Origin: Alphaproteobacteria bacterium
GTDB lineage: Bacteria > Pseudomonadota > Alphaproteobacteria > RF32 > CAG-239
Assembly (NCBI GenBank): GCA_017528205.1
Contig: JAFXPE010000004.1
Span: forward strand, 15,079-79,078
Reading direction: 5' to 3'
DNA: 64,000 nt
A program made the position numbers and the translations under genes. Below the pieces are notes generated by a model that was not told the DNA's origin, did no database searches, and saw only the letters and a list, made by a program, of their open reading frames with translations. Positions 10,701 through 42,131 of this stretch are shown one piece after another. The stretch's first letter is position 1. Each line of letters starts with the position of its first letter.

Positions 10701-13700
10701 GCATTATCCATATTTTGCGGAACATCTCCGGCATCTTGCTGCTTTTGCTTTACTCCTCCCGAAAATGCAGCGGCGCCTTCAATATCAACTTTCTGATTAT
10801 AAGTAGTGGCATTAACGGCCAAATTTGTTGCCTCAATGTCAGAATTTTCTATGCTTGCTCTGACATTTCGGTCAATTGAGGTTGTGTTTACACTTGCGCC
10901 AACGGCTATGCCTGAAGAACTTTGTTCGCCGTCTTCAACCTCTTCTTTTTGTTGCGCCAAGGAACCCTGAACAATTATATTGGTGATTTCATCTTTAGCT
11001 TCTCTTGGATAGGTTATTGCGGGATCAACTTGCTGTTCTTTTTCCTCCGGAGTTAACTCTCTTTGTTGTTTCCACTTTATCTCATCGGTTTTATCATCTC
11101 TTTTGAGGTTTCCACCGGTTGTTCTAATGGTTGCTTTTCCGGCATTTACTTCAATATTATCGGCAACAACCGTATGGTTGTCTTTAATATTTGATATCTT
11201 GGCAATGGTATCTCCGCTGATTTTTTGAATATGAATAGAGCCGTCAACCCCGATTTTTTCCGATTTACCGCCGGTTATAATGATGTTCATATACGACTGC
11301 TCGGTTGCACTGTCAACGTTTATATTGCCCTCTTCGGCTTTAACCGTTGAGTTATCAATCATGGCTGTTGCATGATTGGTATAGTTATCAAACACAAAAT
11401 TGGCTCCGATACCGGCTTTGCCGCCCTCAACAGTCGGCTCATATTCCCAATCTTGTTGCCCCGGAAGTTTATAGTTGAGTTTTTTTATTAAAATATCAAC
11501 GAGTCCGGCGCCGTTATATCCGATAACCGAATTAACCGCATTAACAACAACATCGCCGTCTACCGTGATATCGGAATTGTTTTGAATGGCCGCTATGGTA
11601 TTGGTATTAACCTCGTTATACACCACCGCCGCCGAAGCCGATGCGGTGCCGCCAACCGAATTTGTTTGGGCAAGGTTATTAAAGAAACCCGCCATTTTGA
11701 ATTTCGGTTTCAGTCCGGAATAACTTGCTATAATATTTTGTTCGGCTAATCCGGATACTTCAAAAACAGGTGCTGTATCATCGGCTTTCGGTGTTGCCGG
11801 AGAAACGCTCCACTTTCCGTTAGCTTCGGAAGCAAATCTGCCGCCCACAAAAAAGCTGTCCATCCCCATAATCTTGAAAGGAAACCGCATTCCGAAAGTA
11901 AGACTTCCGACATTCATCGGCAGTTCGGTGGTTGCGTCGACCGTAACATTTTCCGCCTCAATTTTTGACTTATCGATAATCGCTTTTGTGGTATTGTTTT
12001 GTTCACTTAAAATAAGGGCAACCGAAACGCCGAACTTGGCCTCGCCTTGCGTATCCGATGTAGCGGTATTGGTAAGCAAATCAACCGCATTCGCTCTGAT
12101 GATTACATCACCGTCTGCCTTAACTTTAGAATTTTCAATGGTTGCGGTTGTATTATTATTGGTATTGTTGTGAACAACGGCACCGCCGAGTTCAAGCGCT
12201 GCATTGTCGCCTTCTTTGCCAACAACAGGTGTTTTGCCTTTTATTTTGTTGAATATATTAAGTTTGAAGAATTTACCTTGCAATTCCTTTAATTTTTTAT
12301 TCATTGCGGCATCAAAGGTTTTCGGTTTTTGCACCATCATATCAAGAACGCTGCCGTCGGGGGCGTTTTCGGTTTTATGCAAACTTTGCGCCAGAACGGT
12401 CGTATCTTCCGCGGTTGTAATTTCGCTGTCTTTTATACGAGCGGTTACGTTATTATTTGAACGATTTAATACAACGCCGGCCGAAGATGCACTGTTGGCG
12501 GCATCATCAGGTTTATTCGGGTCTTTTTCGCCGGCAACTGCTTCTATGGAAATTTCCGCGTAACTGTCGGATAAATTTGTGGCAAACACGCTCAAATTGT
12601 CAGCCTCAACCGTTGATTTTATGATTGATGCCTCGGTATCGGTTTTAACCGTATTGTTTAAGAACATCAAAAAGAAACCTTCTTCCAGCTTTATCGAAAA
12701 AAGGCTGTCCGAGGTGATAACCGTTGAATTTTCGTTTGTGGAAACGGCGGTTACATCAATATCGCCGTTAACAGCGTTCAAAACAGAATCTTTGACGATT
12801 GCTTTTGACACCGTTTCGGTGCCAACCGCGTAAATACCGACCGGCAATATAAAGGCCAGCAATCTGTTATTGGCATCTAAACTTGATGAAGCCTCGGTTG
12901 ATATTTCAATATTTTTAGCAGCATCTCCAACGGCATTAATGGTGGAACCTTCAACATTAACAATCGCCGAACTTTTGGCTCCCTCAAAATGTTTATAAAT
13001 CTCAGAACTGAAATATTCTGCAAAATAAGAATCTCCGCTGAATATGTAATCAATTATCGTCGGGGTTAAAAAGTTTGCATTTTCGCTGGTTTCACTTGAC
13101 GCTTCAGCATGAATGAAAACGGATAAATCAGGATTTTCCGCATCAGACGCGGTTGCTTTCAGGGCATTTATAATTGAATACCTTACATTTACTTCAGCTT
13201 CGGCTTTACCGGCCACTCCCCAAAGCGATGTTACCGGAGGGATATCGGAATCCGGCGATAAAACAAGATCTTCCAGAGTGTTGATAATAAATTCAACATC
13301 ATCAACCGGATTGGCGGCATCAAAATCCTTTTTCTGTGTGGCTGTTGCAACCAAAGAAACCGTATCTCCCGTTATATTGGAATTTACAACATTAACGCTG
13401 GCTTTTGCCAAATCCACTTTCTGTTGTCTGTCCACCTCTGAGTTTGCGGAAATATCAATTTCATTGGCAGCAATATCGGCCTGATTAATGTCCACTTTGG
13501 TTGTTAATTGTTTGTCATTTCCCGAATCAAAGCCATATCTTTTATTGGCTACAATCTTTATCTTTCCGCCTTCCAAGCTGAAACCGTCGGCATCGGTAAT
13601 ATTATTTGCTACCAAACTGTCAAAAACTTGTTTGGCTTGCTGCTGTGTCATAACCTTTTTTGGGTTCTTCACGCCGGCAACAATTCCGGCTCTGGAGCCG

Positions 13701-17238: not shown

Positions 17239-17658
17239 TTATGCTCCCCACTGCATCAGGAATTCTTTTTCGCAGGTATCGGGGTCGGTTTGGTCGGAAA
17301 TGGCGATAAATCCGTTTTGCTTATAAAACTCGACAGCGGATGCGTTCTTTTCATAAACCATCAGTTGCAGACGATGCTTTTGCTCCTTTACAAAATCCAG
17401 CAATTGCCGCCCTACTCCCAACCCTCGACAATCTTGCCGCACAAAAATGCCGGCGATAAAGTCGTCTTGTAAGCCGATAAAGCCCTTTATTTGCCCGTCT
17501 TCATAAACATAAACCGTGCTTTGCGGCAGAATTTTCTTCACAAAATCATAGTTTTTCCGCCAATATTCGGGCGCTATAAAGTCATGCGCCTGCAAATTGC
17601 CCTCGAGCCATATCTGCATTACCGTATCTAAATCGGCTATTTTGAGCGGTCGTATCAT
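17239..17658 (-). CDS. GNAT-family N-acetyltransferase
   Basis: GNAT motif A region ...GIFVRQDCRGLGVGRQLLDFV...; 139 aa. Confidence 0.75.
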   Translation of the reverse strand: MIRPLKIADLDTVMQIWLEGNLQAHDFIAPEYWRKNYDFVKKILPQSTVYVYEDGQIKGFIGLQDDFIAGIFVRQDCRGLGVGRQLLDFVKEQKHRLQLMVYEKNASAVEFYKQNGFIAISDQTDPDTCEKEFLMQWGA

Positions 17659-18098
17659 TTTGCGAGCCTCATATACAACAGCGGAAAAGGTCTGCCCTGT
17701 TCGTCCGTTGCGGTGCGTTTATAGGTTTTAAAGCCGAGATGTTCGTAAAATCCGACGGCCTGAGGATTTTGCTCATTTACAGTCACTTCGCTGATTTGAT
17801 ACTTTTGGGCGCCGTATTCCATCAGTTTGCGCCCTATTCCCTGCCCGATATACTGCGGGTCCAAAAACAACATTTCCAACCGGTGCTGTTCCACCCCCAT
17901 AAAGCCGAGATAATCGCCGTTGTTCTGCGCCACCACGAGATGCGCCACTCCTTTCAGCGCCTGCGGCACATAATTCTCAATTTCCGCGATGTCTTTGCCG
18001 GTTAAAAATGTATGCGTTTTGCTAACCGACCGCCGCCACAGAGCAGTCAGTTCCTTAATTACATCAGAGTTGCGATCTATAACATCAACAATTTCCAT
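17655..18098 (-). CDS. GNAT-family N-acetyltransferase (second, distinct paralog)
   Basis: ...LFLDPQYIGQGIGRKLMEYG... acetyl-CoA binding motif. It overlaps the downstream GNAT gene by 4 nt. Confidence 0.75.
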   Translation of the reverse strand: MEIVDVIDRNSDVIKELTALWRRSVSKTHTFLTGKDIAEIENYVPQALKGVAHLVVAQNNGDYLGFMGVEQHRLEMLFLDPQYIGQGIGRKLMEYGAQKYQISEVTVNEQNPQAVGFYEHLGFKTYKRTATDEQGRPFPLLYMRLAK

Positions 18099-18739
18099 TA
18101 CTTACATCTCTTTTTAATTTCGGCTTTGACTTTTTTCAAATCGCCGGAGGTCAAAAGCGGTATCAGTTCGTTGATTTCCTCAACGCTTTTATCCCACCAT
18201 TTGAATTTCAGTAGCAACTGTATCAATTCGTCATCAAATCTTTTGCGCACCGGTTTTGCCGGATTTCCGACCACAATCGTATATGGCTCGACATTGCTGC
18301 CGACCACACTGTTGGCACCGATTATTGCCCCATCGCCGATATGCACGCCGGGCAGAATTGTCACGTTTTGCCCTATCCACACGTCATTGCCGACAATCGT
18401 ATCGCCCTTAAGGGGTAAATCGGTCTCAGCCGGCGGCTCTTGTTCAAAATCTTCCATAATATAAAACGGAAACGTGGAAACGGCATTCATCTGATGATTG
18501 GCGCCGTTCATCACAAACTCAACCCCTGCCCCGATTTGGCAGAATTTGCCGATAATCAGCTTGTCGCCGATAAAATCATAGTGATGAGTGACGTGCTTTG
18601 CAAAATCAACATCGGCAAAATAGCTAAAATCCCCGACTATAATGTTCGGATTTTTCAGCGTCGGCTTGATATAGGTTACCGTTTTGATATTCGACACCGG
18701 AAAAATTGCATTCGGGTTAGGTTTCGTTGCCTTTGTCAT
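18098..18739 (-). CDS. Hexapeptide-repeat xenobiotic acetyltransferase (XAT family; Vat/CatB-like)
   Basis: Left-handed beta-helix hexapeptide repeats with a Vat/CatB-like N-terminus (...IKPTLKNPNIIVGDFSYFAD...GAGVEFVMNGANHQMNAVSTFPF...). The start was set to the internal ATG (MTKATKP), which overlaps the stop of the upstream kinase gene. Confidence 0.7.
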   Translation of the reverse strand: MTKATKPNPNAIFPVSNIKTVTYIKPTLKNPNIIVGDFSYFADVDFAKHVTHHYDFIGDKLIIGKFCQIGAGVEFVMNGANHQMNAVSTFPFYIMEDFEQEPPAETDLPLKGDTIVGNDVWIGQNVTILPGVHIGDGAIIGANSVVGSNVEPYTIVVGNPAKPVRKRFDDELIQLLLKFKWWDKSVEEINELIPLLTSGDLKKVKAEIKKRCK

Positions 18740-19254
18740 CAGAATTCTCCTATATCCAAGTTGTATTCTTCCTCTATCAAATGATACGGCAGTCCATGCT
18801 TTTGGCACTGTTGCAAAATGTGCTCGTTATCCTTTAGAGCCATATCTTGCGTAAAATCGCCATCATCCAGCCGCTTTTCGATAACGTTGGCATGGTTTTT
18901 GATGTCCGCAAAGCGATTTAAAATATAGTTTTGGCTCATAATCAGGCAAATGTATTTGATTTCCGCCAGATAATTTTCGCTAAAATCCTGCCGCCAAGCA
19001 AACGGAATATAACAGCCCTCAACGATTAGATTTTGCTTGTTTTCGATGGCGGTTTTAATCATTTCACGCACAATCGGCCACAAATAGTCCGTCAGCTTAT
19101 CATCATCAAGAGCGGTTAAGGCGGTCTGCTTGCTGCGGATCAGCCCCATTTTCAGCAAATCCAACGACAAGAGCGGAAAGTGATACTTTTCCAGCATTTT
19201 TTGTGCCAGCAAAGTCTTTCCCGTATGCGATGCCCCTGTGATTAAAATTATCAT
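18739..19254 (-). CDS. P-loop NTPase / small-molecule kinase-like protein
   Basis: An N-terminal Walker A (MIILITGASHTGKTLL). Its size and architecture resemble CPT/gluconate-kinase-like small kinases. It is first in a 4-gene overlapping operon with the XAT and GNAT genes. Confidence 0.5.
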   Translation of the reverse strand: MIILITGASHTGKTLLAQKMLEKYHFPLLSLDLLKMGLIRSKQTALTALDDDKLTDYLWPIVREMIKTAIENKQNLIVEGCYIPFAWRQDFSENYLAEIKYICLIMSQNYILNRFADIKNHANVIEKRLDDGDFTQDMALKDNEHILQQCQKHGLPYHLIEEEYNLDIGEF

Positions 19255-19343
19255 AAACCCTCACTTGTTAAAAGCGAGAATAAAACGTTTTTGGTTAAAA
19301 AGCAATATTTTCAAACGCTTTGTTTTTATCATGTTTTTACACC

Positions 19344-19994
19344 TCAGCGACTGACAAATGCTACGATTTCTTTTTGCAAGAGGCGGAACACATTGGCCAC
19401 CAGATATCCGTCGGCAATTGCGTGATTTAAGCGAACGCTCACCGGCATAACCAGTCTGCCGTTTTCTTCGCGATATCGTCCCCAGTTCACGATGGGCGCA
19501 AAGAACAAATAGCCGTCCGGCAACTCAATATTCAACGAATCATACGAAAGCCACGAAATGTATGAGGCATCAAACCAATTCGGATGATTTTCCATATCCA
19601 ACCCGTAATCACGCGTTTGCTTTGCCGTCTCCATATCTTTCAGCGCGCCGGCATAAAACGTGTCATAGTCCTCGTAATATTGCGTGTAAACCGGCGTACA
19701 GGTTTCCGTATCTTCATGAAATACATATTGCGTGGGGTTGACCATATCATAGCAGATAAGCTCGCCCGTCTGCCAAAGATAGCCCATGCGATAATCTTCA
19801 CGCGAATTCATTACTTTGGCAAGGATATACAGAAAATTCAAATAGAATTTCGAACTCGTCCGCTTTGACCAGGCTGCAAGCTCGGTCACATCTATTCTGG
19901 CAGTCATAGAAGTGGAGCATTTGCAGTCTTCCGAAAAGTGACGAAACACACCCTTGCGATAATACGTTTCTTTATCAATGACCTTGTAGTTCAT
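19344..19994 (-). CDS. cat: Chloramphenicol O-acetyltransferase, classic (type A) CAT fold
   Basis: Colinear similarity to CAT_I along the whole protein, including the catalytic-His region ...SVRLNHAIADGYLV... (compare MAIQVHHAVCDGFHV) and ...LFFAPIVNWGRY...; 216 aa. Confidence 0.8.
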   Translation of the reverse strand: MNYKVIDKETYYRKGVFRHFSEDCKCSTSMTARIDVTELAAWSKRTSSKFYLNFLYILAKVMNSREDYRMGYLWQTGELICYDMVNPTQYVFHEDTETCTPVYTQYYEDYDTFYAGALKDMETAKQTRDYGLDMENHPNWFDASYISWLSYDSLNIELPDGYLFFAPIVNWGRYREENGRLVMPVSVRLNHAIADGYLVANVFRLLQKEIVAFVSR

Positions 19995-20110
19995 ATTTCA
20001 AAAAACTCCCGAATTTTTATTTTAACCGCAGATTACAGCAGACAATTCGGAATGTCCAGTATTTAATGACGGATTTACGCGGCATTTACGCCCTTCCCGC
20101 GTATATTTTT

Positions 20111-20467
20111 TCACTTCTCTTGTCGGCGTATCAAAATACCTTTCATATACGGAGTTCTGTTGTGTGTTTCATAAATAATCTTTTTTTCGTCTTCCGTACA
20201 ACCGAGCAATATTTTAATTTCGGAATCTTTTTTCAGCAAGTCAACAATGCACATAACGGCGTCAATTTGCTTTCCGCGGCTTCCCAACCACACGTCTATG
20301 CCGGCACCGTCCATTGAAGATGTATCTTTTAAATAACCGTAATCAACTCTGTATACAAAGTCGGGAAATTTCGGGTGTATCGTTCCCTTTGGACGATCAA
20401 TAATCACTTCCGATTTGCTTACCAATTCATCTAATGCTTTCCAAAATTCGCTATTATATTCATTCAT
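20111..20467 (-). CDS. Hypothetical protein (weak resemblance to the inorganic pyrophosphatase core: DYGY...DGAGIDVW)
   Basis: An ORF with reasonable coding character; no confident family assignment. Confidence 0.35.
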   Translation of the reverse strand: MNEYNSEFWKALDELVSKSEVIIDRPKGTIHPKFPDFVYRVDYGYLKDTSSMDGAGIDVWLGSRGKQIDAVMCIVDLLKKDSEIKILLGCTEDEKKIIYETHNRTPYMKGILIRRQEK

Positions 20468-25162: not shown

Positions 25163-26374
25163 TTAATTTTTCGGGAAAAATACCGAGTGCAACAAATTTA
25201 CGTCTTCCGGACTTCTGGTGATTTTTATTTTGCCCGATTTATAAATGTGGCAAACCACAAACGGAGCATATCCCCAAAATGTGGAATAAACATCGGTATA
25301 AGCACCAGCACCGCCGATTATTATATCATCGCCGATTTGTACCGGCTGACTGATATGTGTATTTTCAACAATGTTATTGGCACCGCTGGTGATGCCGTCC
25401 GTAATTCCGATATTTTCGCCCCCATCGCTCGGAAGCGGGTGCAAAAGTTCATAACGCGCGTTTTGGTTCGGAATAAGAACATTGGTGCCGATGTCCGTAA
25501 TCAGCCATTTTTTGTTTTTTATCTGTTTAATATCAATCACTTTACCCAAAACATATCCGGCGGAAGCGGATAAAAAACGCCCCGGTTCCAGCACCAATTT
25601 CTGAGGCGAGAACAGCTTGGCAAATTCATCTGCCACGGCGGTAAATAACTTCTTCAGTTTATCTTCACGGTTTGCGGAATAAACCTCAATGCCGCCGCCC
25701 AAGTCAATTCTTTGCGGCATAATAGCGTATTTTTGCTTTATGTCGGCCAAATGCTCTCGCAAAATTTTCATTGCCGCGATATAGGGTTCGGAACACAACT
25801 CGTTGATTGTAAAATGCATATGAACAATATCCCATTTTGCCCGTTTTTCATTTTGAATGAGCGCGATAAACTCTTTATAAACCTCTGAATCGACATAATT
25901 TCCCAGTTTATTTTTTTGGTTTGAATAAGGAGTGGCAACCTGCAATCCGCCGGCATCAAAACGCAACCTTATTCCCAATTGACAGCTTGCTTTAGGGTGT
26001 GCGGCCAAATAGTTTTTGACAATGCCCAAATCGCGCAATGTATCCACAATAAGCGTTGTGTTCTTTTGCTTTAGAGCCTTCATCAAACATGCCTCCGAAC
26101 GCCCTAAACCGTTGAGAATGATTTTTTTGAATTTGGCTCTCTGCGCCAAATCAAGCTCAAGCTCCGACATAACTTCCGCACCCAAACCGCGCCGCGCAAA
26201 ATAGCGCAACAAGTTGAGGTTATAACAACTCTTGACCGCAAAATAAATATCGGAATTTTTTAAATATTCGGATATCAGAGCAACTGCTTTTTCCGCCTCA
26301 TTCTCATCATAGAACATAACCGGTGTATTCAAGTTATGAGCAACAAGAAAGTTTTTTAAGGCCGAAATGTTCAT
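25163..26374 (-). CDS. PLP-dependent decarboxylase, fold type III (Orn/DAP/Arg decarboxylase family 2)
   Basis: PLP-lysine motif YFAVKSCYNLNLL, glycine-rich phosphate loop IDLGGGIEV, and the C-terminal EPGRFLSASAG motif. It overlaps the upstream Dcd-like gene by 4 nt. Confidence 0.75.
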   Translation of the reverse strand: MNISALKNFLVAHNLNTPVMFYDENEAEKAVALISEYLKNSDIYFAVKSCYNLNLLRYFARRGLGAEVMSELELDLAQRAKFKKIILNGLGRSEACLMKALKQKNTTLIVDTLRDLGIVKNYLAAHPKASCQLGIRLRFDAGGLQVATPYSNQKNKLGNYVDSEVYKEFIALIQNEKRAKWDIVHMHFTINELCSEPYIAAMKILREHLADIKQKYAIMPQRIDLGGGIEVYSANREDKLKKLFTAVADEFAKLFSPQKLVLEPGRFLSASAGYVLGKVIDIKQIKNKKWLITDIGTNVLIPNQNARYELLHPLPSDGGENIGITDGITSGANNIVENTHISQPVQIGDDIIIGGAGAYTDVYSTFWGYAPFVVCHIYKSGKIKITRSPEDVNLLHSVFFPKN

Positions 26375-26889
26375 TTAAAATCCTCACTTGTTTTTGAAAT
26401 TTGCGGCCCATGGCTGTGTTGATATTTGCCGTTGTACAACACAATTTCTCCCTTGGGAACCCAAAAGCTCACCTGAGCAATTTTCATACGCGGATATACA
26501 ATAACCGGCAAGGTTGAATATAATTGCAAGGTTAAGTTGCCCACCGAGCCGATATCAATTAAATCGGCCGTGATATGCACAAACAATCCCGAGCGCGCCG
26601 TTCCGGATTTTGCGTGCAATATCGGCACAAAATGTTCGCTGCCGATTTCTTCTACGGTGCTCCCCAAATAAAATTCGTTTTTTTCAATCAAAAAGCCTTC
26701 CGGAGGAATATCGATAATTTCAAAATTGGGCTTTTTCTTAGGATCCAGCACTTCGTCGGTATAGCGTATCAGTTTATCGGCCAGACAAACGTCATAAGAG
26801 TTGGTTGTGACCTGTTCTTCGTTAAACGGCGAAATAGTGATGTTGCCGTTTAAGGTTTCTTTGATTATTTCATTACCGCTCAAAATCAT
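26371..26889 (-). CDS. dCTP deaminase/dUTPase-fold protein, paralog 1 (predicted catalytic Glu replaced by Gln)
   Basis: Colinear with Dcd: MILSGNEIIKETLNGNITISPF...SYDVCL... and ...ARSGLFVHITADLIDIGSVGNLTLQLYS... (compare Dcd [26 protein letters not shown]). It is 172 aa. Confidence 0.7.
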   Translation of the reverse strand: MILSGNEIIKETLNGNITISPFNEEQVTTNSYDVCLADKLIRYTDEVLDPKKKPNFEIIDIPPEGFLIEKNEFYLGSTVEEIGSEHFVPILHAKSGTARSGLFVHITADLIDIGSVGNLTLQLYSTLPVIVYPRMKIAQVSFWVPKGEIVLYNGKYQHSHGPQISKTSEDFK

Positions 26890-27392
26890 AGCTTTTCAAC
26901 CTTCAATTGCTGTGTCGGGAGGTTATATTTGGCATAAGTAAAAGCATGCTCATATATTTCTCCGTAATTATCCCAAAACGTTACCTGCCCTATAATCATT
27001 CCCGCATACAACCGGATAGGTTTTGCGGCAACAAGTTCCAAGGTCCATTGGTGGAAAGACTTTGTATGCCCCAAATTTGCCGAAACTTGCAAAAACAGTC
27101 CCAAACGTCCCATAGAGCTACGCCCGATTAAAGACATGGCATATTTTTTGCTACCGATAATTTCTTTGGTGTGTCCTAAATATAAAACATGAGGCTTGAG
27201 AACATAACCTTCGGGCGGAATAGTCACATCTTCGAAAACCGGCTGACCGTCTTGCATTTTTTGAAAAACTTTGAGCATACTCCCCAAGCGATAATTATAA
27301 CTGTTGGGGTTGACTTGATTTTCATAAAAAGGTACCAGCGATATATTACCTTTTTTTTGCTCAGAAATTATTGCTTTTCCGGTCAGAATCAT
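26886..27392 (-). CDS. dCTP deaminase/dUTPase-fold protein, paralog 2 (Glu retained: ...WTLELV...)
   Basis: MILTGKAIISEQKKGNISLVPF...SYNYRLG... and ...GRLGLFLQVSANLGHTKSFHQWTLELV...; 168 aa. It overlaps both neighbours by 1-4 nt. Confidence 0.7.
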   Translation of the reverse strand: MILTGKAIISEQKKGNISLVPFYENQVNPNSYNYRLGSMLKVFQKMQDGQPVFEDVTIPPEGYVLKPHVLYLGHTKEIIGSKKYAMSLIGRSSMGRLGLFLQVSANLGHTKSFHQWTLELVAAKPIRLYAGMIIGQVTFWDNYGEIYEHAFTYAKYNLPTQQLKVEKL

Positions 27393-28342: not shown

Positions 28343-29284
28343 ATGCACAAAATTCAAAGAGTAAATTTCAATATTTTTCCTGAGAAACTGTTTGCGTTTG
28401 CAAAGTTTGACGAATTTTTGGTTGACGATACTTATTTATACCTCAGAACCTACGGGCACGAAGGAAAATATGAATTTGACAGCGCCATTTCTCCTTTTGA
28501 AAATATGATACAAGCCACAATACGCTTTATAAATTCGGTTCTGACGCCGGAGCGAATGCAATTGTTTGCCCAAACCGTAAATCCGTCGGCCATAATTTTA
28601 CCGGTTCACGGTTTTCATTATATCGGTTGTTCAAACAAAGTTTATACCTTTGAAACCGATAACACCAGCTCAAATTTAATGACCGTATTGACCACCATCA
28701 AACTTCATCATGCGCTGGGCATGGATTATTCTTTCAGCTGTCGACAGTTGGAAAAAGTTTCGCGCAATGCCTCGTCTTTAATTCATCGCATTGCCAACCC
28801 TACTCCGCTTGATGCCGATATTGTTAAGGGCAAAGAATATATTGCCTTTGATGACCATATCCATTCCGGCAGCACGGTGGCAAATTTGCTGGGAGTTATT
28901 GCGGCCAAGCAAGGCCAATGCAACACTATAATGTGTTTGGCCACCAATCCCATTGTTAAAAAACTGAAGTTGCGGCAATCCACATTGGATAAAATCAGAA
29001 CAAATCCGCTGTATTCTTCTTTAGAAAGCAAGTGGGCGGACTTATTCGGGTTTGATTTTGCGGGCTTAACCGAGGTTGAAGCGAAGTTACTGCTGAATAA
29101 CTACGTTAAAAAGAATATTGACGTTATCGCCGAAATCAAAAAATATAATCCGGCCGAATATGTCCCGACTTACGATAAATCCCTGTGGCCAGTTCTTACG
29201 GCCAAAGAAACTTATAACAGCCTGAGCGAACTCGGAATGCCCGGCTATGGAATTAAACTTATCAATACGGCACAAAAAATATGA
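28343..29284 (+). CDS. Hypothetical protein with a type-I phosphoribosyltransferase-like PRPP-binding motif
   Basis: ...KEYIAFDDHIHSGSTVANLLG... matches the hydrophobic-x4-D-D-x-x-x-S/T-G-x-T PRPP loop of type I PRTases. The rest of the protein is not classifiable by eye. Confidence 0.35.
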   Translation: MHKIQRVNFNIFPEKLFAFAKFDEFLVDDTYLYLRTYGHEGKYEFDSAISPFENMIQATIRFINSVLTPERMQLFAQTVNPSAIILPVHGFHYIGCSNKVYTFETDNTSSNLMTVLTTIKLHHALGMDYSFSCRQLEKVSRNASSLIHRIANPTPLDADIVKGKEYIAFDDHIHSGSTVANLLGVIAAKQGQCNTIMCLATNPIVKKLKLRQSTLDKIRTNPLYSSLESKWADLFGFDFAGLTEVEAKLLLNNYVKKNIDVIAEIKKYNPAEYVPTYDKSLWPVLTAKETYNSLSELGMPGYGIKLINTAQKI

Positions 29285-30057
29285 ATCACCGGCAACACAT
29301 AACCGATATTTTGAATGCTTACAGAAAGAAAAGTATTGTTCCCGACAGCAATTTTTCGGTTGCTTGCGTTATTGAAGACACCAACCGCAATCTTTACCCC
29401 GGCGCCAACATAGAATTTATCGACCGCACGCTCGGAATATGCGCCGAAGGAGCCGCTATTTGCAAAATGCTTGCGGAGCGCGGCTATCAGGTTATTCAAA
29501 ATATTTGGCTGATGGGAGGTGACGCTCAACCGGCCGCGGATATGCCGGAAGATATGCTTTTTCCTTGCGGCATCTGTCTGCAACGGCTGGGTGAATTGGC
29601 GGCAAAAGATGCGAAAGTAAAGATAATATCCCCTATCGATAATCATCTCACCGATTTCAATTTGAGTGATTTGTTACCTCATATCAATAAGTTTACCGAC
29701 TATTTTGATTTTAAACCTTATGATTTATGCGGAGAGCTTGATTTTAACGATATCCCCTCCGCGTTGCAAATGCTTAAGGCCAGAAGTTTTATTCCGGACC
29801 GTAAAAAAAACGAGGCGGTGATTTTGCAAACTCAAGGCAATCACTTTTGTTATGGCGTATATTTTGCAACCTGTTGCTACAAGGCCGATATTCCCGCCAT
29901 AAATATGGCCATGTATAATTATTTGTTGTCGGATTATGCGACGGAAAAAATCTCGCGGGTATATTATTCTGCCGAAAATTCTTTGTTGCAAATTCATCCG
30001 GAATTTTCTAAACTCTTAAAAGATGCGGTTTTGACGGAGATAAAAATTGAAAACTGA
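29281..30057 (+). CDS. Cytidine/deoxycytidylate-deaminase-fold (CDA) zinc enzyme, two-domain architecture
   Basis: Zinc-ligand motifs C-A-E (...RTLGICAEGAAICKM...) and P-C-x-x-C (...LFPCGICLQRLGEL...) in the N-terminal ~125 aa. A second degenerate CDA-like half follows, as in dimeric two-domain Cdd. It overlaps the upstream gene by 4 nt. Confidence 0.65.
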   Translation: MNHRQHITDILNAYRKKSIVPDSNFSVACVIEDTNRNLYPGANIEFIDRTLGICAEGAAICKMLAERGYQVIQNIWLMGGDAQPAADMPEDMLFPCGICLQRLGELAAKDAKVKIISPIDNHLTDFNLSDLLPHINKFTDYFDFKPYDLCGELDFNDIPSALQMLKARSFIPDRKKNEAVILQTQGNHFCYGVYFATCCYKADIPAINMAMYNYLLSDYATEKISRVYYSAENSLLQIHPEFSKLLKDAVLTEIKIEN

Positions 30058-30496
30058 GTGCAATGACATTTATTCTTTGATTTTATTTAAGCCCGATGTT
30101 TATTCGCGAAACCTCAGCGATGCCATTTTGCAAGAATTTCATAACAACGGTTTGGAAGTCGTTTATCATAAAAAAATGCAACTGACCGAAAAAATGTTAC
30201 GCGCCTATCAACCTTTGCTCAACGAGCCCGACGATTTTGGCGAAACGGCATGGCAGTATGACATTATAAACGCATATACCCGCGTGCCGACCGATGTTTT
30301 TTTGTTAAAAGGGCCGAATGCCCTTGAAAAAACCAATGAAATCAAACAATATTTGCGCGATAAGTATATTCCCGGCGAAAATAAGTATATCATCTATAAT
30401 TTGCTGCATACGGCTGATGATGCGGCTGATTTGGAACTTAATGTCGGTGTGCTTATTCCGGAAAAGCTGGATTTGCTTAAAAAAAGGAGAGATTGA
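30047..30496 (+). CDS. Divergent nucleoside-diphosphate-kinase (NDK)-fold protein
   Basis: ...LILFKPDVYSRNLSDAILQEF...GLEVV... (NDK: [25 protein letters not shown].LV) and an active-site-His-like motif ...YNLLHTADDAADLE... (NDK: NIIHGSDSVESAEKE). Confidence 0.55.
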   Translation: MKTECNDIYSLILFKPDVYSRNLSDAILQEFHNNGLEVVYHKKMQLTEKMLRAYQPLLNEPDDFGETAWQYDIINAYTRVPTDVFLLKGPNALEKTNEIKQYLRDKYIPGENKYIIYNLLHTADDAADLELNVGVLIPEKLDLLKKRRD

Positions 30497-30497
30497 G

Positions 30498-31505
30498 ATG
30501 GAAAATTACGAGAAAATCAAAGAAATAAGAGACAGTTTTCTGTCGTTTTATATGATGGCCGGATATAAGTGTGTTGATCCGGCGCCGCTCATTCCCGAAA
30601 ATGACGACACCATTTATTTTTCAAATTCCGCCATTGTGCCGTTCAAAAAATATTTGCAAACCGACTGTCCGAGACTGACCGTTGCGCAAAAGTGTTTACG
30701 CTTTAGGGGCGGCAAAAATTTGTATGATTTGAACGAGCACCCTTATGTGCCTTATTTTAATATGGTCGCCTCAATAACCAACGCCAAACATTGTCAAGAA
30801 GTTGCGGAATTAACGCAGGATTTTTTGTTAAACTCGTTGAATATTCCGGAAAATAAATTATATGCCGATGTTTCTTCTCAAGACCCGGTTATTATCAAAA
30901 ATTTTGAAAAATATTTTGATTTGCACGTTGATAAATTGGAGCAAGACGAATATCGTTGGGGTTTCGGCATAAACGGGGTACACGGCAGAGGGTTGTGCTT
31001 TTCCATGCGTTACGGCGACAACAAAACCGGAGATTTGGGGCAAATTATTCAAATTAACTCCGACAACAACAAAACCAACTATGCCTTTGGGTTCGGAATT
31101 GAAAAGTTTATAAAGATGTCCGAAAATCTTGACCATTTTTACGAAGCCACCTCTATTTACGAAATTACAAAAGATATCCAAGGGCCTTTGGCTTGGCGCT
31201 ATATGAGTTCGTTGTCGTCTTTGTGTTATTTATACAGTCAGAATATTGATTTTGAGGACCCGAAGCATAAAAAACAAAATAAAATTGTCTCGTCATTATT
31301 GCATCAGGTGGCGGTTGTTTCCGAGCTTATGGACATTCCGCTTTCTAAAATTAACGCCGATGCCTACAAATTTTCGATGGTTGAGCTGAACAAAAAAACA
31401 AACGTAGATGCCCTGTTGCGTGATATAAACAACAGAAAGCAAACAACGCGGCACGACAAAGAGTTTCAGCAAATCAGCCGACAATTATCGAGCAAGACGT
31501 ATTAG
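30498..31505 (+). CDS. Stand-alone alanyl-tRNA-synthetase catalytic-core paralog (class II aaRS-like amino-acid ligase, ~335 aa; no tRNA-binding, editing or C-Ala domains)
   Basis: Colinear with the AlaRS N-terminus: [44 protein letters not shown] ~ [63 protein letters not shown] ~ [36 protein letters not shown] ~ W..[26 protein letters not shown] ~ TGMGLERIAAVL. The start is set at MENYEKI, with an aaggaga RBS and a 1-nt gap after the NDK-like stop. Confidence 0.65.
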   Translation: [335 protein letters not shown]

Positions 31506-32165: not shown

Positions 32166-32207
32166 CCCTACCTTATTCTGCGCGCATAAATTTTGAGGAA
32201 TATCCAA

Positions 32208-32909
32208 ATGAAGACAATTGTTGCCATCGGCGGCGGAGAAACCGGTCGTGTCATAAAATCAGAAGACGGTACGGAATATCAAACGCCGCTGGAAACTACA
32301 CCTATCGACAAATTGATTATTCGGTTGGCTAACAAGCCGCACCCAAAGGTTTTGTTTATTGGTACGGCAACGCACGATAAACCCGCGTATCCGGAGTTTA
32401 TACGCCGGCAATATGTTGGAAATTTGGGCTGTTCCTCTCTTGAAACTTTGTGTATAGAAACCGAACACCTGTCTTTTGACGAGATAAGAAACAAGGTGCT
32501 TGCCGCTGATATAATTTATGTCGGCGGGGGCGATACGACGCATATGCTGAAAGTGTGGAAAGAGCAGCAACTCGACGTGATTTTGCGCGAGGCTTACGAA
32601 AAAGGTGTTATTTTGGCGGGCATATCCGCCGGAGCCATTTGTTGGTTTGAATGGTATGATAATATGGATGACATCGACACCATTGATGATTTGGCGTTGG
32701 TGCCGGGGCTCGGTTTTGTAAAGGAATTCGGCGTTCCGCACTATAATTGGCTCAGCAAAGAAGAGCGAGACAAAATAAATTTGCTGCTGAAGGCAAAGAA
32801 TATTTCCGGCATTGCCATAGACGATTGCGCGGCCGTTGTTTTTAGGGATAATAACATCGAGTTTATCTCTGATGCCGATTATGGCTCAACCGTCAGATAC
32901 ATTCCGTAA
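32208..32909 (+). CDS. Peptidase S51 (dipeptidase E / cyanophycinase-like) family protein
   Basis: MKTIVAIGGGE...VLFIGTATHD...IIYVGGGDTTHMLKVWKE...ILAGISAGAICWFE... (the Ser-nucleophile GxSAG context). The start was set at ATG 32208, with a gaggaa RBS. Confidence 0.65.
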   Translation: MKTIVAIGGGETGRVIKSEDGTEYQTPLETTPIDKLIIRLANKPHPKVLFIGTATHDKPAYPEFIRRQYVGNLGCSSLETLCIETEHLSFDEIRNKVLAADIIYVGGGDTTHMLKVWKEQQLDVILREAYEKGVILAGISAGAICWFEWYDNMDDIDTIDDLALVPGLGFVKEFGVPHYNWLSKEERDKINLLLKAKNISGIAIDDCAAVVFRDNNIEFISDADYGSTVRYIP

Positions 32910-33552: not shown

Positions 33553-34830
33553 TTATTCCCCATCTACAGGATGAAAAATTCCATCCTCGACGTATCCATA
33601 TTTTCCATTTTCATAATGATAGAAGCGATTGTCCATATTTTCTTTATGAATAATTACAGGTTTTTGAGAAACAACGACTGAATCATCCGGCACATCAATA
33701 GCTACAGCACATCCTGCACCAATTCTGACATTATTTCCTATTCTTATCTTTCCTATAATTGTAGCACCCGCTCCTATAAGTACATTATCTCCTATTTCAG
33801 GCGATCCATTTTTAGAAGAACCTTTTGTCGTATTTGAACCAATAGTAACATTTTGATAAATAACGCAACGCTTTCCTATTTTGGCCCCTCCTGATACGAA
33901 AATACCATGAAATCCATGTGGAAGCGTTGGAATTGTTGCCCATTTTGACCCACTACCAATCCAACATCCTTTACTATTACACAATTCATTATAAACTCGT
34001 TCATAACGAATTTTTTCATCTCCTGACTTTTTCATAACAAGATCTTTTAATACCCATAAATTATTATGAACTTCTTTTAAAATATCATTGTCATTCACTT
34101 GTTTAGTATAAATTGATCCACTTTTATTTTCATTTGGTAGCATACTGTTTAATAATAATTCGAATTTATTTAGTCTATTTTCTAATGCATCACAATATTG
34201 GGTGAGAAGCTGATTTTGCTTCAATAAATTATCTGCGGTAATTCTATCAACTATCTTATCAATATTTGATATTATTTCATCACATGAGTAAATCGGCTGA
34301 GATAAGATAAATTCTTTCAACTCTGTCTTATCATAGCTATACGGACATATTTTTAAATTAAGTACTATTTTATCTCCTTCCTTAACAGATTTTTCATATT
34401 TAAAAGGTTCATCATGCCATGCAGTAACGGGCTTTGTTAATATTTCTTCACCATCTATTTTAAGAGATGTATAGCATATTTTCAGAGGAAATCTTTTGCC
34501 ATTTATACGTTTATCTTTTCCTCTAAAATCTATTTTAAGTCTACCTGCCTGAGAAATGCCCATAACCAATTCTCGTTCGCATGTATCTCCCTCTATTAAA
34601 ACCCCTTGCCCACGTTCATTTTTGAACCACTCCGGATAAGATATTTTAAGATTTTCTCCTTCAACAGTTATTGTTCCATTTTGTGCGTCATAAATTTTTG
34701 CATCTATCCTAAAAGATAACAACTCCTTTTGTATTTTGGGAAGTATATTATTAATAACTGATGTTATATCACTCATTCTGCTCTCCATTGTTGGAATAAC
34801 ATTCTCCATATTATTAGTATAATGGCACAA
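33553..34830 (-). CDS. Two-domain protein: uncharacterised ~250-aa N-terminal domain fused to a serine-acetyltransferase-like hexapeptide (LbH) acyltransferase domain
   Basis: The C-terminus ...GIFVSGGAKIGKRCVIYQNVTIGSN...GSPEIGDNVLIGAGATIIGKIRIGNNVRIGAGCAV... is colinear with the CysE/SAT C-terminal domain. The N-terminal part has no recognisable motif. The gene looks more AT-rich than its flanks. Confidence 0.55.
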   Translation of the reverse strand: MCHYTNNMENVIPTMESRMSDITSVINNILPKIQKELLSFRIDAKIYDAQNGTITVEGENLKISYPEWFKNERGQGVLIEGDTCERELVMGISQAGRLKIDFRGKDKRINGKRFPLKICYTSLKIDGEEILTKPVTAWHDEPFKYEKSVKEGDKIVLNLKICPYSYDKTELKEFILSQPIYSCDEIISNIDKIVDRITADNLLKQNQLLTQYCDALENRLNKFELLLNSMLPNENKSGSIYTKQVNDNDILKEVHNNLWVLKDLVMKKSGDEKIRYERVYNELCNSKGCWIGSGSKWATIPTLPHGFHGIFVSGGAKIGKRCVIYQNVTIGSNTTKGSSKNGSPEIGDNVLIGAGATIIGKIRIGNNVRIGAGCAVAIDVPDDSVVVSQKPVIIHKENMDNRFYHYENGKYGYVEDGIFHPVDGE

Positions 34831-40736: not shown

Positions 40737-42131
40737 ATGATAGTATTTTTAGCGGCGCTGTTTGCTTTAATTCTCGGTTATCTGATTTACGGCAAAATCG
40801 TGGAAAAAGTTTTTTGCATCAACGAAAAAGCCGTAACGCCGGCAATTGCCAAGCAAGATAATGTTGATTTTATGGTGTTGCCGAAGTGGCGTGTGTTTCT
40901 CATTCAGTTTTTGAACATTGCCGGATTGGGGCCGGTTTTCGGGGCCATTTTGGGCGCTTTATACGGTCCGGTTGCCCTGATTTGGATTGTCTTAGGCTCG
41001 ATTTTTGCCGGCGGCGTGCACGACTATATGGCCGGTATGATATCGGTGCGTCACGAGGGTAAATCTTTGGTGCCGCTGGTCGAAAAATACTTGGGTTCCA
41101 AAATCAAAATACTGTTTTTGATTTTTATGGTGTTCTTTCTTGCGTTGCTCGGCTCGGTATTTGCCATGAGTCCGGCACAAATGCTCTCTAATTTAACGCA
41201 AACCCCGTTTATTTGGTGGATTGTGATTATTTTCGGCTATTATTTTTTGGCCACCCTGTTGCCGATTGATAAAATTATCGGCAAGTTGTATCCTATTTTT
41301 GCGCTGTTGCTGATTGTGGTTTCCGTAGCTATGATTGTGGTTTTGTTTGTCAGCGGCGATACTTTTTATCCGCAATTGACCTTTTCTAACCAGCATCCGA
41401 AAGGATTGCCGATATTTCCGTTGATGTTTGTAACCATTGCCTGCGGGGCCGTCAGCGGTTTTCACGCCACGCAATCTCCGCTTATGGCTCGCTGTTTGGC
41501 CAACGAAAAGCAAGGCCGCTCCATTTTTTACGGCGCCATGATAACCGAAGGCGTGGTGGCCTTGATTTGGGCAACGCTGGGAATTGCCTTTTATCAAGGT
41601 AGCGAAGGCTTGAATCAGGTGATTACGCAAAGCGGTCCGGGCGGAGTGGTTTCCGGCGTGGCTAACGGTTATTTGGGCTCAATCGGTGGAATGCTGGCGG
41701 TGTTATCCGTGGTTTTGCTGTCCATAACTTCCGGTGATACGGCGTTTCGCTCGGCCAGACTGACCATCGGCGACTATTGGCAAAAAGAAAATACTTCTTT
41801 GAAAAAGCGTCTGTCCATCAGCGTGGTTGTGCTTTCGGCCGGAATTGCCTTGAGTTTCTTTGATTTAACCACCATTTGGGTATATTTCGGTTGGACCAAC
41901 CAGTTGCTGGCAACAATCACTTTATGGATGGCAACGTTTTATCTGCATCGCGAACACAAGTTTTATTGGCTGACTTTGTTGCCGGCCGGATTTATGACTT
42001 CGGTTTGCACCACCTACATAATGTATGATAAAATCGGCTTCAATCTGCCGCTTGATTTGTCTGCAATTGTCGGCGCAATCGTGGCCCTGCTTTTGGTGCT
42101 AACTTTCGTTTTTATTCACCGCAAAAAATGA
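40737..42131 (+). CDS. cstA: Carbon starvation protein CstA-family transporter
   Basis: The N-terminus ...LILGYLIYGKIVEKVF...FMVLPKWRVFLIQFLNIAGLGPVFGAILGALYGP... is diagnostic of CstA. It has a GAGAGG RBS. Confidence 0.8.
   Translation: MIVFLAALFALILGYLIYGKIVEKVFCINEKAVTPAIAKQDNVDFMVLPKWRVFLIQFLNIAGLGPVFGAILGALYGPVALIWIVLGSIFAGGVHDYMAGMISVRHEGKSLVPLVEKYLGSKIKILFLIFMVFFLALLGSVFAMSPAQMLSNLTQTPFIWWIVIIFGYYFLATLLPIDKIIGKLYPIFALLLIVVSVAMIVVLFVSGDTFYPQLTFSNQHPKGLPIFPLMFVTIACGAVSGFHATQSPLMARCLANEKQGRSIFYGAMITEGVVALIWATLGIAFYQGSEGLNQVITQSGPGGVVSGVANGYLGSIGGMLAVLSVVLLSITSGDTAFRSARLTIGDYWQKENTSLKKRLSISVVVLSAGIALSFFDLTTIWVYFGWTNQLLATITLWMATFYLHREHKFYWLTLLPAGFMTSVCTTYIMYDKIGFNLPLDLSAIVGAIVALLLVLTFVFIHRKK

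Follow-up and report, generated by a model that had tools for sequence, protein, structure and literature searches.

A free-standing AlaRS-like protein in a gene cluster with microcin-C-type genes from an uncultured alphaproteobacterium, a candidate transferase for aminoacyl-nucleotide synthesis

We analysed a stretch of 64,000 nucleotides (64 kb, referred to as the window) from a metagenome-assembled alphaproteobacterium (GenBank assembly GCA_017528205.1, contig JAFXPE010000004.1, positions 15,079 to 79,078). From about 25.1 to 32.9 kb the window carries a gene cluster whose signature enzyme is a short protein related to alanyl-tRNA synthetase (AlaRS), here named AlaL. Its genes suggest that AlaL most likely serves to join an amino acid to a nucleotide and not to charge tRNA. 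The AlaL gene and its translation signal are as follows (aa, amino acids; nt, nucleotides; NDK, nucleoside diphosphate kinase):

30498..31505, + strand: AlaL, AlaRS-like protein of 335 aa, with an aminoacylation-domain fold (residues 1-204) and a helical domain (residues 205-335)
30484..30489, + strand: Shine-Dalgarno-like AAGGAG, by direct sequence reading; 8 nt before the AlaL ATG and within the end of the NDK-like gene

The in-frame open reading frame (ORF) ending at 31505 opens, in its longest version, at 30318, within the upstream gene. Judged from the sequence, ATG 30498 is the true start, because AAGGAG lies 8 nt upstream, the TGA stop of the NDK-like gene occupies 30494-30496, and the family alignment places the start Met at a position common to all AlaL homologues. 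Since the AAGGAG falls within the end of the NDK-like gene, translational coupling of AlaL to this gene is indicated. The identical protein is deposited at NCBI as MBR3675667.1, a 'hypothetical protein' from a metagenome-assembled 'Alphaproteobacteria bacterium'.

By sequence comparison, the kinship of AlaL with AlaRS is well beyond chance: E-values reach 1.7e-18 for Pfam tRNA-synt_2c (profile positions 1-167), 1.8e-15 for the A. aeolicus AlaRS, and 1.2e-19 for the AlaL family profile against the PDB. An earlier note on this DNA, made from its letters, had described the protein as colinear with the AlaRS core including class II motifs 2 and 3. This description holds, as the three peptides quoted there (residues 64-80, 154-172 and 197-207) align to AlaRS QRCVR (motif 2), a strand segment and DTGMGLER (motif 3). 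AlaL is not a full synthetase: its score with the NCBIfam alaS equivalog TIGR00344 is 58 bits (cut-off 457), and it ends at residue 335 with neither an editing nor a C-Ala domain. By tblastn, the 64 kb window contains no other AlaRS-like sequence.

To compare structures, we used an AlphaFold2 model of AlaL built from the family alignment (predicted local distance difference test, pLDDT, 89; predicted TM-score, pTM, 0.88). A Foldseek search, which the earlier note had suggested as a check against AlaRS structures, places AlaRS catalytic fragments on top, with query TM-scores mostly of 0.72-0.77 among the top AlaRS-fragment matches. In total, 313 of the 335 model residues align to AlaRS 9jc7, compared with at most 203 residues for other class II synthetases. 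The C-terminal part, formerly taken for a basic, low-complexity tail, consists of five helices (residues 205-335, pLDDT about 85-97); the family conserves them, and variability and low model confidence are confined to the last 10-15 residues. According to the model, which superposes this part on the tRNA-recognition domain of AlaRS, it is a trimmed counterpart of that domain. The earlier statement that AlaL stops before the tRNA-recognition, editing and C-Ala domains is thus correct for the latter two and, by the model, wrong for the first. Isoelectric points (pI) of the helical C-domain are 8-9.3 in 12 of 13 family members (6.7 in P0004), and those of the N-domain 5.2-6.4 in ten members and up to 8.3 in the others; a basic C-domain joined to an acidic to near-neutral N-domain would be as expected for RNA binding.

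Searching 5.8 billion proteins, we found 13 clusters of AlaL homologues, each 334-348 aa long, 45-99% identical and conserved to the C-terminus. Their alignment contains 79 invariant columns distributed from end to end, a pattern that shows, at the level of sequence, constraint along the full length. When 1.84 billion representatives were scanned exhaustively with HMMER, 151 matches fell below 1e-10, nearly all of 300-450 aa. From them we define a wider short AlaRS-like family (proteins P0014-P0162; at least 137 clusters, at 50% identity), in which the few proteins with names are called 'hypothetical protein'. Relatives of AlaL were absent from IMG/VR, leaving a phage origin without support, and from the JGI metagenome scan; among GTDB species genomes, only two contain them. 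These data also decide on the explanation that AlaL is a degraded fragment or pseudogene of a full-length alaS. Its mere 335 aa and the missing editing and C-Ala domains would fit such a fragment, but the 13 homologue clusters are conserved over their full length, start, stop and ribosome-binding site are intact, the same cluster context recurs amid unrelated flanks, and no AlaRS remnants are found in the window. We therefore rejected this explanation, the probability of which is practically nil, in agreement with the earlier note.

Residues of the active site were mapped onto an E. coli AlaRS N-terminal reference that matches the published numbering of R69, W170, N212, V214, D235 and G237; hhalign and a 154-sequence MAFFT alignment agree on the resulting map. 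The following positions (AlaRS numbering) were compared between the 13-member AlaL subfamily and the 137-member wider short family:

R69: Arg, retained in the AlaL subfamily; Arg, retained in the wider family
F90: Phe, retained in the AlaL subfamily; Phe, retained in the wider family
G237 and GxGxE: retained in the AlaL subfamily; mostly retained in the wider family
D235 (alpha-amine anchor): Ala in 13/13 of the AlaL subfamily; Glu in 113/137 of the wider family
Glu183: Cys or His in the AlaL subfamily; mostly Thr in the wider family
N212: Gln (type A loci, see below) or Lys (type B) in the AlaL subfamily; Asn or Gln in the wider family
Motif-3 Arg: Lys in the AlaL subfamily; mostly Thr in the wider family

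AlaL thus has the class II aminoacylation fold with AlaRS-type motifs 2 and 3, and the Ala at the D235 position, Ala196 of AlaL, is invariant. The motif-3 consensus of the wider family reads YEFGFGxET, with Glu at the same position. Of the Ala-binding residues, whose conservation the earlier note had proposed to check, the motif-2 Arg and G237 are kept and D235 and the motif-3 Arg are replaced; canonical alanine activation by AlaL is unlikely because D235 is replaced by Ala, Glu183 by Cys or His, and the motif-3 Arg by Lys. The invariant residues of AlaL crowd the old active site (R68, F69, R70, G71, K73, F87, G163, R164, S169, Y172, Y195-G200, E202 and K203), and this dense invariance around the pocket argues for AlaL being an enzyme.

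A protein with a comparable pattern has been described: Zheng et al. (2024) reportedly characterized AcmF, an AlaRS-like aminoacyl-tRNA-dependent transferase of ascamycin biosynthesis in Streptomyces. AcmF is 370 aa long (PMC4257720), truncated to the aminoacylation and tRNA-recognition domains, and devoid of the residues for ATP/Ala activation (PMC12945691). It does not activate alanine; instead, it moves alanine from Ala-tRNA(Ala), made by AcmD, the AlaRS of the cluster, onto the sulfamate NH2 of dealanylascamycin, and its Glu232 (substitution D232E relative to AlaRS Asp235) is essential (PMC12945691). The earlier note's view that an Ala-type core is unusual has been overtaken by AcmF and by the short AlaRS-like proteins of metagenomes (at least 137 clusters), so that free-standing cores of the Ala type can no longer be regarded as absent.

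The same residues bear on the possibility that AlaL is an ATP- or nucleoside triphosphate (NTP)-dependent ligase, which would itself, and with no tRNA involved, activate a small carboxylate or amino acid as an acyl-nucleotide or attach it to a nucleotide directly. For such a ligase speak the retained motif-2 Arg, stacking Phe and GxGxE, the conservative motif-3 exchange of Arg for Lys in the AlaL subfamily together with an AlaRS-like GGK in the motif-2 loop, and the lack of a partner AlaRS in the window, L004 and L011 (related loci are numbered L001 onwards); loss of Asp235 could also mean a substrate without a free alpha-amine. We nevertheless consider it unlikely, given Cys/His at the Glu183 and Ala at the Asp235 position in AlaL, and Thr at the motif-3 Arg position in the wider family. 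Moreover, AcmF, the analogue that has been characterized, depends on tRNA and does not activate alanine, and in close sister clusters a canonical AlaRS accompanies AlaL. A ligase for small molecules would also have little evident reason to retain a basic helical domain that, in the model, superposes on the tRNA-recognition domain. Of the earlier proposal, ATP-dependent transfer of a small amino acid to a non-tRNA acceptor, the second part is retained, since AlaL very probably attaches a small amino acid to a nucleotide and not to tRNA; ATP dependence is doubtful in view of D235A, Cys/His at Glu183, the motif-3 Lys and the AcmF precedent.

The genes surrounding AlaL were annotated as follows:

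30047..30496, + strand: NDK-like, 149 aa; Pfam NDK 1.2e-08, active-site His context NLLHTAD kept, orthologues in L011, L005, L020 and L021
29281..30057, + strand: two-domain cytidine-deaminase-like (CDA), 258 aa; Pfam dCMP_cyt_deam_1/2, NCBIfam cytidine deaminase 4.6e-20
28343..29284, + strand: 313-aa protein, weakly phosphoribosyltransferase (PRTase)-like; loop YIAFDDHIHSGST resembling a phosphoribosyl pyrophosphate (PRPP) loop
27392..28198, - strand: MccD-like S-adenosylmethionine (SAM)-dependent transferase (MT), 268 aa from ATG 28198; the listed ORF extends to TTG 28222
26886..27392, - strand: DCD1, dCTP-deaminase-fold, 168 aa; Pfam DCD 2.2e-27, PDB alignments, five-locus alignment
26371..26889, - strand: DCD2, dCTP-deaminase-fold, 172 aa; Pfam DCD 1.1e-33, NCBIfam dCTP_deam 98 bits, PDB and five-locus alignments
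25163..26374, - strand: fold-type III pyridoxal phosphate (PLP) decarboxylase, 403 aa; Pfam Orn_Arg_deC_N 3e-20, position of the MccE N-terminal domain (MccE-NTD) relative to the MccD-like gene
32193..32909, + strand: S51 (PepE/cyanophycinase/MccG-family) peptidase, 238 aa; NCBIfam cyanophycinase/PepE, PDB S51 peptidases, GISAGA nucleophile motif

AlaL is the last gene of an operon encoding the 313-aa protein, the CDA-like and the NDK-like protein, with junctions that overlap or leave 1 nt, so that the coupling to nucleotide enzymes noted earlier is confirmed. This operon diverges from a second one encoding MT, DCD1, DCD2 and the PLP decarboxylase. The 313-aa protein has no sequence match in Pfam, NCBIfam or the PDB; its AlphaFold2 model (pLDDT 75) gave only type I phosphoribosyltransferases as top Foldseek matches, all weak (E about 3e-3, TM 0.2-0.46), with the ShosT defence toxin among the fold matches. 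Only four homologues exist in the 5.8 billion proteins, all of them within AlaL clusters, and we tentatively regard the protein as PRTase-like on the basis of its model. In the CDA-like translation the zinc/catalytic motifs CAE...PCGxC are intact; together with the NDK His and the PRTase-like protein, this would fit the building or detoxifying of a cytosine nucleotide. Searches for structured RNAs or T-boxes (Rfam) and tRNAs (ARAGORN) within the cluster were negative.

The two dCTP-deaminase-fold proteins have complementary defects. DCD1 retains both the Ser-Ser/Arg motif and the Glu of TLEL but not the IDPGF Asp, whereas DCD2 keeps the Asp (LIDIG) and carries Gln for the catalytic Glu (TLQL). 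Neither polypeptide therefore has the full catalytic set of dCTP deaminase/DCD-DUT (Ser/Arg, IDPGF Asp, TLEL Glu), each having lost one element, and the pattern is kept in five loci (the window, L004, L011, L020 and L021). Because the losses are complementary and conserved, they suggest a (possibly obligate) DCD1-DCD2 heteromer with split, coupled or novel deamination/alpha-phosphate chemistry.

The second operon also links the cluster to microcin C (McC). Searching the PDB with MT, the only match at E<=1e-3 is MccD 5FCD (8e-29), plasmid MccD aligns over the full length in blastp (1.5e-33, 28% identity), and the top plasmid tblastn matches are mccD genes within mccBCDEF operons. By these comparisons MT is a specific MccD homologue, i.e. 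a putative aminocarboxypropyl transferase. MccD and the PLP-decarboxylase domain of MccE install the aminopropyl group on the McC phosphoramidate (PMC10491745). The window decarboxylase matches MccE residues 48-321 at 2e-16 (blastp), with 83% coverage for the Y. pseudotuberculosis MccE match, and its NCBIfam match is lysA-like (5e-39, below cut-off); its link to MccE is mainly positional.

A third microcin C element is the peptidase. S66 peptidases from the sister loci L011 and L004 match E. coli MccF at 1e-22 and 1e-25 and the B. anthracis MccF-like protein at 2e-92. MccF cleaves the carboxamide bond of aminoacyl-nucleotides, and MccG, of class S51, cleaves the same type of bond in processed McC with a preference for aminoacyl-cytidylates (PMC9239234). 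The window contains no S66 gene or remnant, including between the NDK-like gene and AlaL. Its S51 gene, located 0.7 kb downstream of AlaL, is 35-36% identical to the S51 genes flanking AlaL in all type B loci and is a candidate self-immunity hydrolase standing in for the S66 peptidase. A predicted hydrolase for self-immunity is therefore encoded either way, as S51 in the window or as S66 in sister loci. This MccD-, MccE-NTD-, MccF- and MccG-type context, which the earlier note missed, is decisive for the interpretation of AlaL.

Building upon the AlaL homologues, we then compared their genomic loci. A type A gene set recurs amid unrelated flanks in L011/L012, L004, L006 and L005, with a colinear order of MT, DCD, DCD, decarboxylase, S66 and AlaL in L004 and L006. 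The genes for the 313-aa, CDA and NDK proteins are missing from L004, and this module is therefore dispensable. L006 has a CDA-like gene split over two frames (4911-5619, - strand), a possible pseudogene, and no match to the 313-aa or NDK protein. As judged from these gene contents, the minimal conserved type A set is MT, DCD1, DCD2, decarboxylase, peptidase and AlaL. Type B loci (L001-3, L007-10) combine AlaL with two other methyltransferases, which have no blastp match to MccD, two radical-SAM enzymes, a protein of about 180 aa (182 aa), in which no domain was found, and an S51 peptidase. Three further AlaL lineages (L015/17, L018 and L020/21) also show the peptidase association. L015 and L017 encode AlaL, an S66 peptidase (54-55% identical to that of type A), an MccD-like methyltransferase, a truncated Asp/Lys-type class II core and a small AAA kinase; in L018, AlaL is fused to an HGTP_anticodon domain and accompanied by ThrRS, S66 and an aminoacyl-tRNA-transferase-type LPG_synthase_C gene.

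Across these loci, S66 is present in L004, L005, L006, L011/12, L020 and L021, and S51 in the window and each type B locus that reaches that far (L001-L003, L007-L009). S66 and S51 are thus mutually exclusive and jointly universal across loci extending far enough, and each AlaL lineage examined has an MccF-like (S66) or MccG-like (S51) peptidase within a few genes. The methyltransferases of type A loci, L015 and L017 that were compared with MccD are MccD-like. Two loci, L020 and L021, were reached via homologues of the 313-aa protein and share with the window the modules of the 313-aa protein, CDA, NDK and S66 and of MT, DCD and DCD. Both contain two AlaRS-type genes, one of them a diverged AlaL (391 or 411 aa) with Glu at position 235. 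The partner in L020 (6558-7868, - strand) is a mini-AlaRS of 436 aa whose motifs are fully canonical and which lacks both the editing and the C-Ala domain; in L021 (322-2136, + strand), a 604-aa AlaRS without C-Ala lies beside the diverged AlaL. We regard these copies as candidates for a dedicated or resistant AlaRS. The pairing is that of AcmD and AcmF and links the pathway to alanine and tRNA(Ala), whether by supplying the donor, by providing a resistant target, or in both ways.

The surroundings of the loci are those of variable DNA. CstA of the window (40737-41453) is 83% identical to that of L011 (12140-12856), and its distance to the cluster is 9 kb in the window and about 1 kb in L011, so that the region of 31.5-40.7 kb, including a cupin and the S51 gene, is a variable insertion beside the cluster. 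Cas9 is encoded at 1-3306 of L011/L012, a type III-like restriction-modification (R-M) system with an SNF2 helicase at 1-6600 of L007-L010, and phage tail genes flank the cluster at 16306-21023 of L007. Judging from these flanks, we describe the cluster as a small mobile cluster in variable- or defence-island-like surroundings.

Three further regions of the window were noted. A resistance-type run at 17655-20467 encodes a GNAT protein, a hexapeptide acetyltransferase, a 171-aa AAA kinase, a chloramphenicol acetyltransferase and a 118-aa inorganic pyrophosphatase (InPase)-like protein; the kinase is 33% identical to an L015 protein and the InPase-like domain 44% to an L001 protein, and the proteins they resemble are encoded beside AlaRS-like clusters elsewhere. 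The other two regions are a giant ORF of 4205 aa (1739-14356, -), for which neither the first nor the last 1200 residues match Pfam, and a 425-aa protein (33553-34830, -) with a C-terminal serine-O-acetyltransferase-like hexapeptide domain and an N-terminal 300 residues without family match.

Such flanks raise the question of whether the same chemistry could serve as an intracellular toxin/immunity or anti-phage module, releasing a toxic nucleotide on infection, and not as an exported antibiotic. Proteins of the dCTP-deaminase fold are known as defence effectors, no exporter is encoded in any locus, and the variable islands with Cas9 in L011, with the type III-like R-M system and SNF2 helicase in L007-L010 and with phage tail genes in L007 would suit this role. 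Against it, PADLOC finds no match to the cluster proteins except a spurious Cas8, the family is not found in IMG/VR, and homologues of MccD, MccF and MccG have so far been tied to antibiotic maturation and immunity. We consider a defensive role quite unlikely.

A further explanation, in which AlaL is a non-catalytic AlaRS mimic, draws on two precedents: self-resistance synthetase copies are common in inhibitor clusters, and HisZ is a class II synthetase paralogue that serves as regulatory subunit of a PRTase. Accordingly, AlaL could act in immunity as a decoy, sequestering an aminoacyl-nucleotide directed at AlaRS, or it could regulate a neighbouring enzyme as a HisZ-like subunit; the lost alpha-amine anchor and the PRTase-like gene in the AlaL operon would agree with this. 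However, the old active site is densely invariant, L004 and L006 keep AlaL without the PRTase-like gene, dedicated S66/S51 hydrolases already cover immunity, and the minimal cluster offers no other candidate for forming the aminoacyl bond, all of which makes a mimic very unlikely.

We propose, with about as much confidence as doubt and by analogy to AcmF, that the AlaL cluster makes a non-hydrolysable aminoacyl-nucleotide, which would be an aminoacyl-adenylate mimic and synthetase inhibitor, via aminoacyl-tRNA-dependent transfer. Like AcmF, AlaL would make no adenylate and would bind the nucleotide acceptor in its old adenylate pocket. An aminoacyl-tRNA, probably Ala-tRNA(Ala), would dock on the helical domain, and AlaL would pass the aminoacyl group to an amino group of the acceptor. 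The most plausible such group is the NH2 of a pyrimidine nucleoside 5'-phosphoramidate, an isostere of the sulfamate used by AcmF. Speculatively, the phosphoramidate nucleotide could be supplied by the DCD1/DCD2 pair, aided by the PRTase-like, CDA and NDK genes; NH3, either free or released by the deaminase, would attack the alpha-phosphate within an active site of the dUTPase type. Next, as happens in microcin C, the MccD-like enzyme together with the decarboxylase would add an aminopropyl group to the phosphate. Protection of the producer would come from the S51 peptidase, or from S66 in the sister loci, through cleavage of the aminoacyl-N bond.

Several observations weigh against this proposal. 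With regard to the tRNA donor, a cluster-encoded AlaRS partner is absent from the window (tblastn), L004 and L011, and the helical domain alone gives no significant match to the AlaRS profile (hhalign, local, E 0.19), its equivalence to the tRNA-recognition domain coming from predicted structure only. The Asn/Asp pair that reads G3:U70 is not kept in the AlaL family: the Asn position is His, Tyr or Lys, and the family stops short of the segment bearing the Asp, in a region of low alignment confidence. Regarding AcmF, its essential Glu232 corresponds to the invariant Ala of the AlaL subfamily, and the likeness is drawn from its published description, not from its sequence; a fingerprint by published residue numbers found no AcmF match among the retrieved AlaRS-like proteins. 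In addition, the motif-2 loop (RxRGGK) and motif-3 Lys of the AlaL subfamily are more AlaRS-like than in the wider family, and therefore leave room for residual NTP chemistry.

The microcin C side has its own gaps. The window lacks MccB-like proteins (blastp and tblastn with plasmid MccB) and equivalents of MccA and MccC, the related loci contain no ThiF gene, and no locus has an exporter. MccA and MccB together are the smallest set by which a microcin C cluster is defined. The window decarboxylase scores nearer to LysA-type enzymes than to MccE, and a secreted cupin separates the S51 gene from AlaL in a variable region. Type B loci are without MccD-like, DCD and decarboxylase genes, so the phosphoramidate/aminopropyl scheme is not general; since types A and B have only AlaL and S51 in common, the type B acceptor must differ. 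Taken together, Ala at the AcmF Glu232 position, the AlaRS-like motif-2 loop, the motif-3 Lys and the missing partner AlaRS leave room for a different donor, for alpha-amine acylation of a preformed aminoacyl-nucleotide (peptide extension), or for the NTP chemistry mentioned above.

The most far-reaching version of our proposal, improbable as a whole, is a ribosome-independent microcin-C-like warhead: the heteromeric DCD pair would make the pyrimidine nucleoside 5'-phosphoramidate, AlaL would acylate the P-NH2 from aminoacyl-tRNA, aminopropylation and protection would be MccD/MccE-like and MccF/MccG-like, and the at least 137 short AlaRS-like clusters would mark a large synthetase-built toxin class in uncultured bacteria. 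To our knowledge, few aminoacyl-adenylate mimics have been described from nature (microcin C, ascamycin, agrocin 84, albomycin and SB-203208), and such mimics are the best natural leads against aminoacyl-tRNA synthetases. The AlaL locus unites an ascamycin-type synthetase-like transferase with microcin-C-type tailoring and immunity, without precursor peptide or MccB, a combination with an AlaRS-like enzyme for which we found no description in the searchable literature, which does not extend to subscription-only papers. If our proposal is correct, the locus would provide a new enzymatic route to N-acyl phosphoramidate (or related) nucleotides and would add a second functional class to the AlaRS-derived transferases, one in which Ala replaces the catalytic Glu. 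A short AlaRS-like gene together with S66/S51 and an MccD-like gene would then serve as a genome-mining handle for a family annotated as 'hypothetical protein'.

Among known systems, AcmF is the nearest counterpart. AcmF and AlaL are both free-standing, share the same two-domain truncation and are alike in size (370 and 335 aa); both have degenerate activation residues, keep the motif-2 Arg, have lost the G3:U70 Asn/Asp pair and sit in nucleoside-antibiotic-type clusters. The canonical AlaRS beside AlaL in L020/L021 mirrors AcmD/AcmF, and the AcmF-type Glu at the Asp235 position is found in the wider short family (113/137) and in the AlaL proteins of L020/L021. They differ in that the helical domain of AlaL is shorter and ends before the YGFP segment, and in that the AlaL cluster has MccD/MccE-type tailoring, the DCD pair and MccF/MccG-type peptidases instead of sulfamate-pathway genes. 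The hosts differ as well, an uncultured gut/rumen-type alphaproteobacterium for AlaL and Streptomyces for AcmF. With canonical AlaRS fragments (E. coli AlaRS441, A. aeolicus 1riq, 9jc7 and natural mini-AlaRS), AlaL has the fold in common over 313 residues, recognizable motifs 2 and 3, and the retained R69 and G237, whereas its tRNA-recognition domain is trimmed and lacks the G3:U70-reading residues. The principle of giving a synthetase core a non-translational job is shared with AsnA, EpmA/GenX/PoxA, HisZ and the amino acid:carrier-protein ligases. Microcin C, finally, resembles the AlaL cluster in its MccD homologue, a PLP decarboxylase with a putative MccE-NTD role, peptidases of the MccF (S66) or MccG (S51) type, and its location in variable or mobile DNA, and the pyrimidine (cytidine) theme is that of the Yersinia and Bacillus McC variants. 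The MccA precursor, the ThiF-like MccB, the MccC exporter and the MccE GNAT domain belong to microcin C and have no counterpart in the AlaL cluster. The aminoacyl-nucleotide bond is made by MccB in microcin C and, as we propose, by a synthetase-like enzyme here, which would make the product of the AlaL cluster non-ribosomal.

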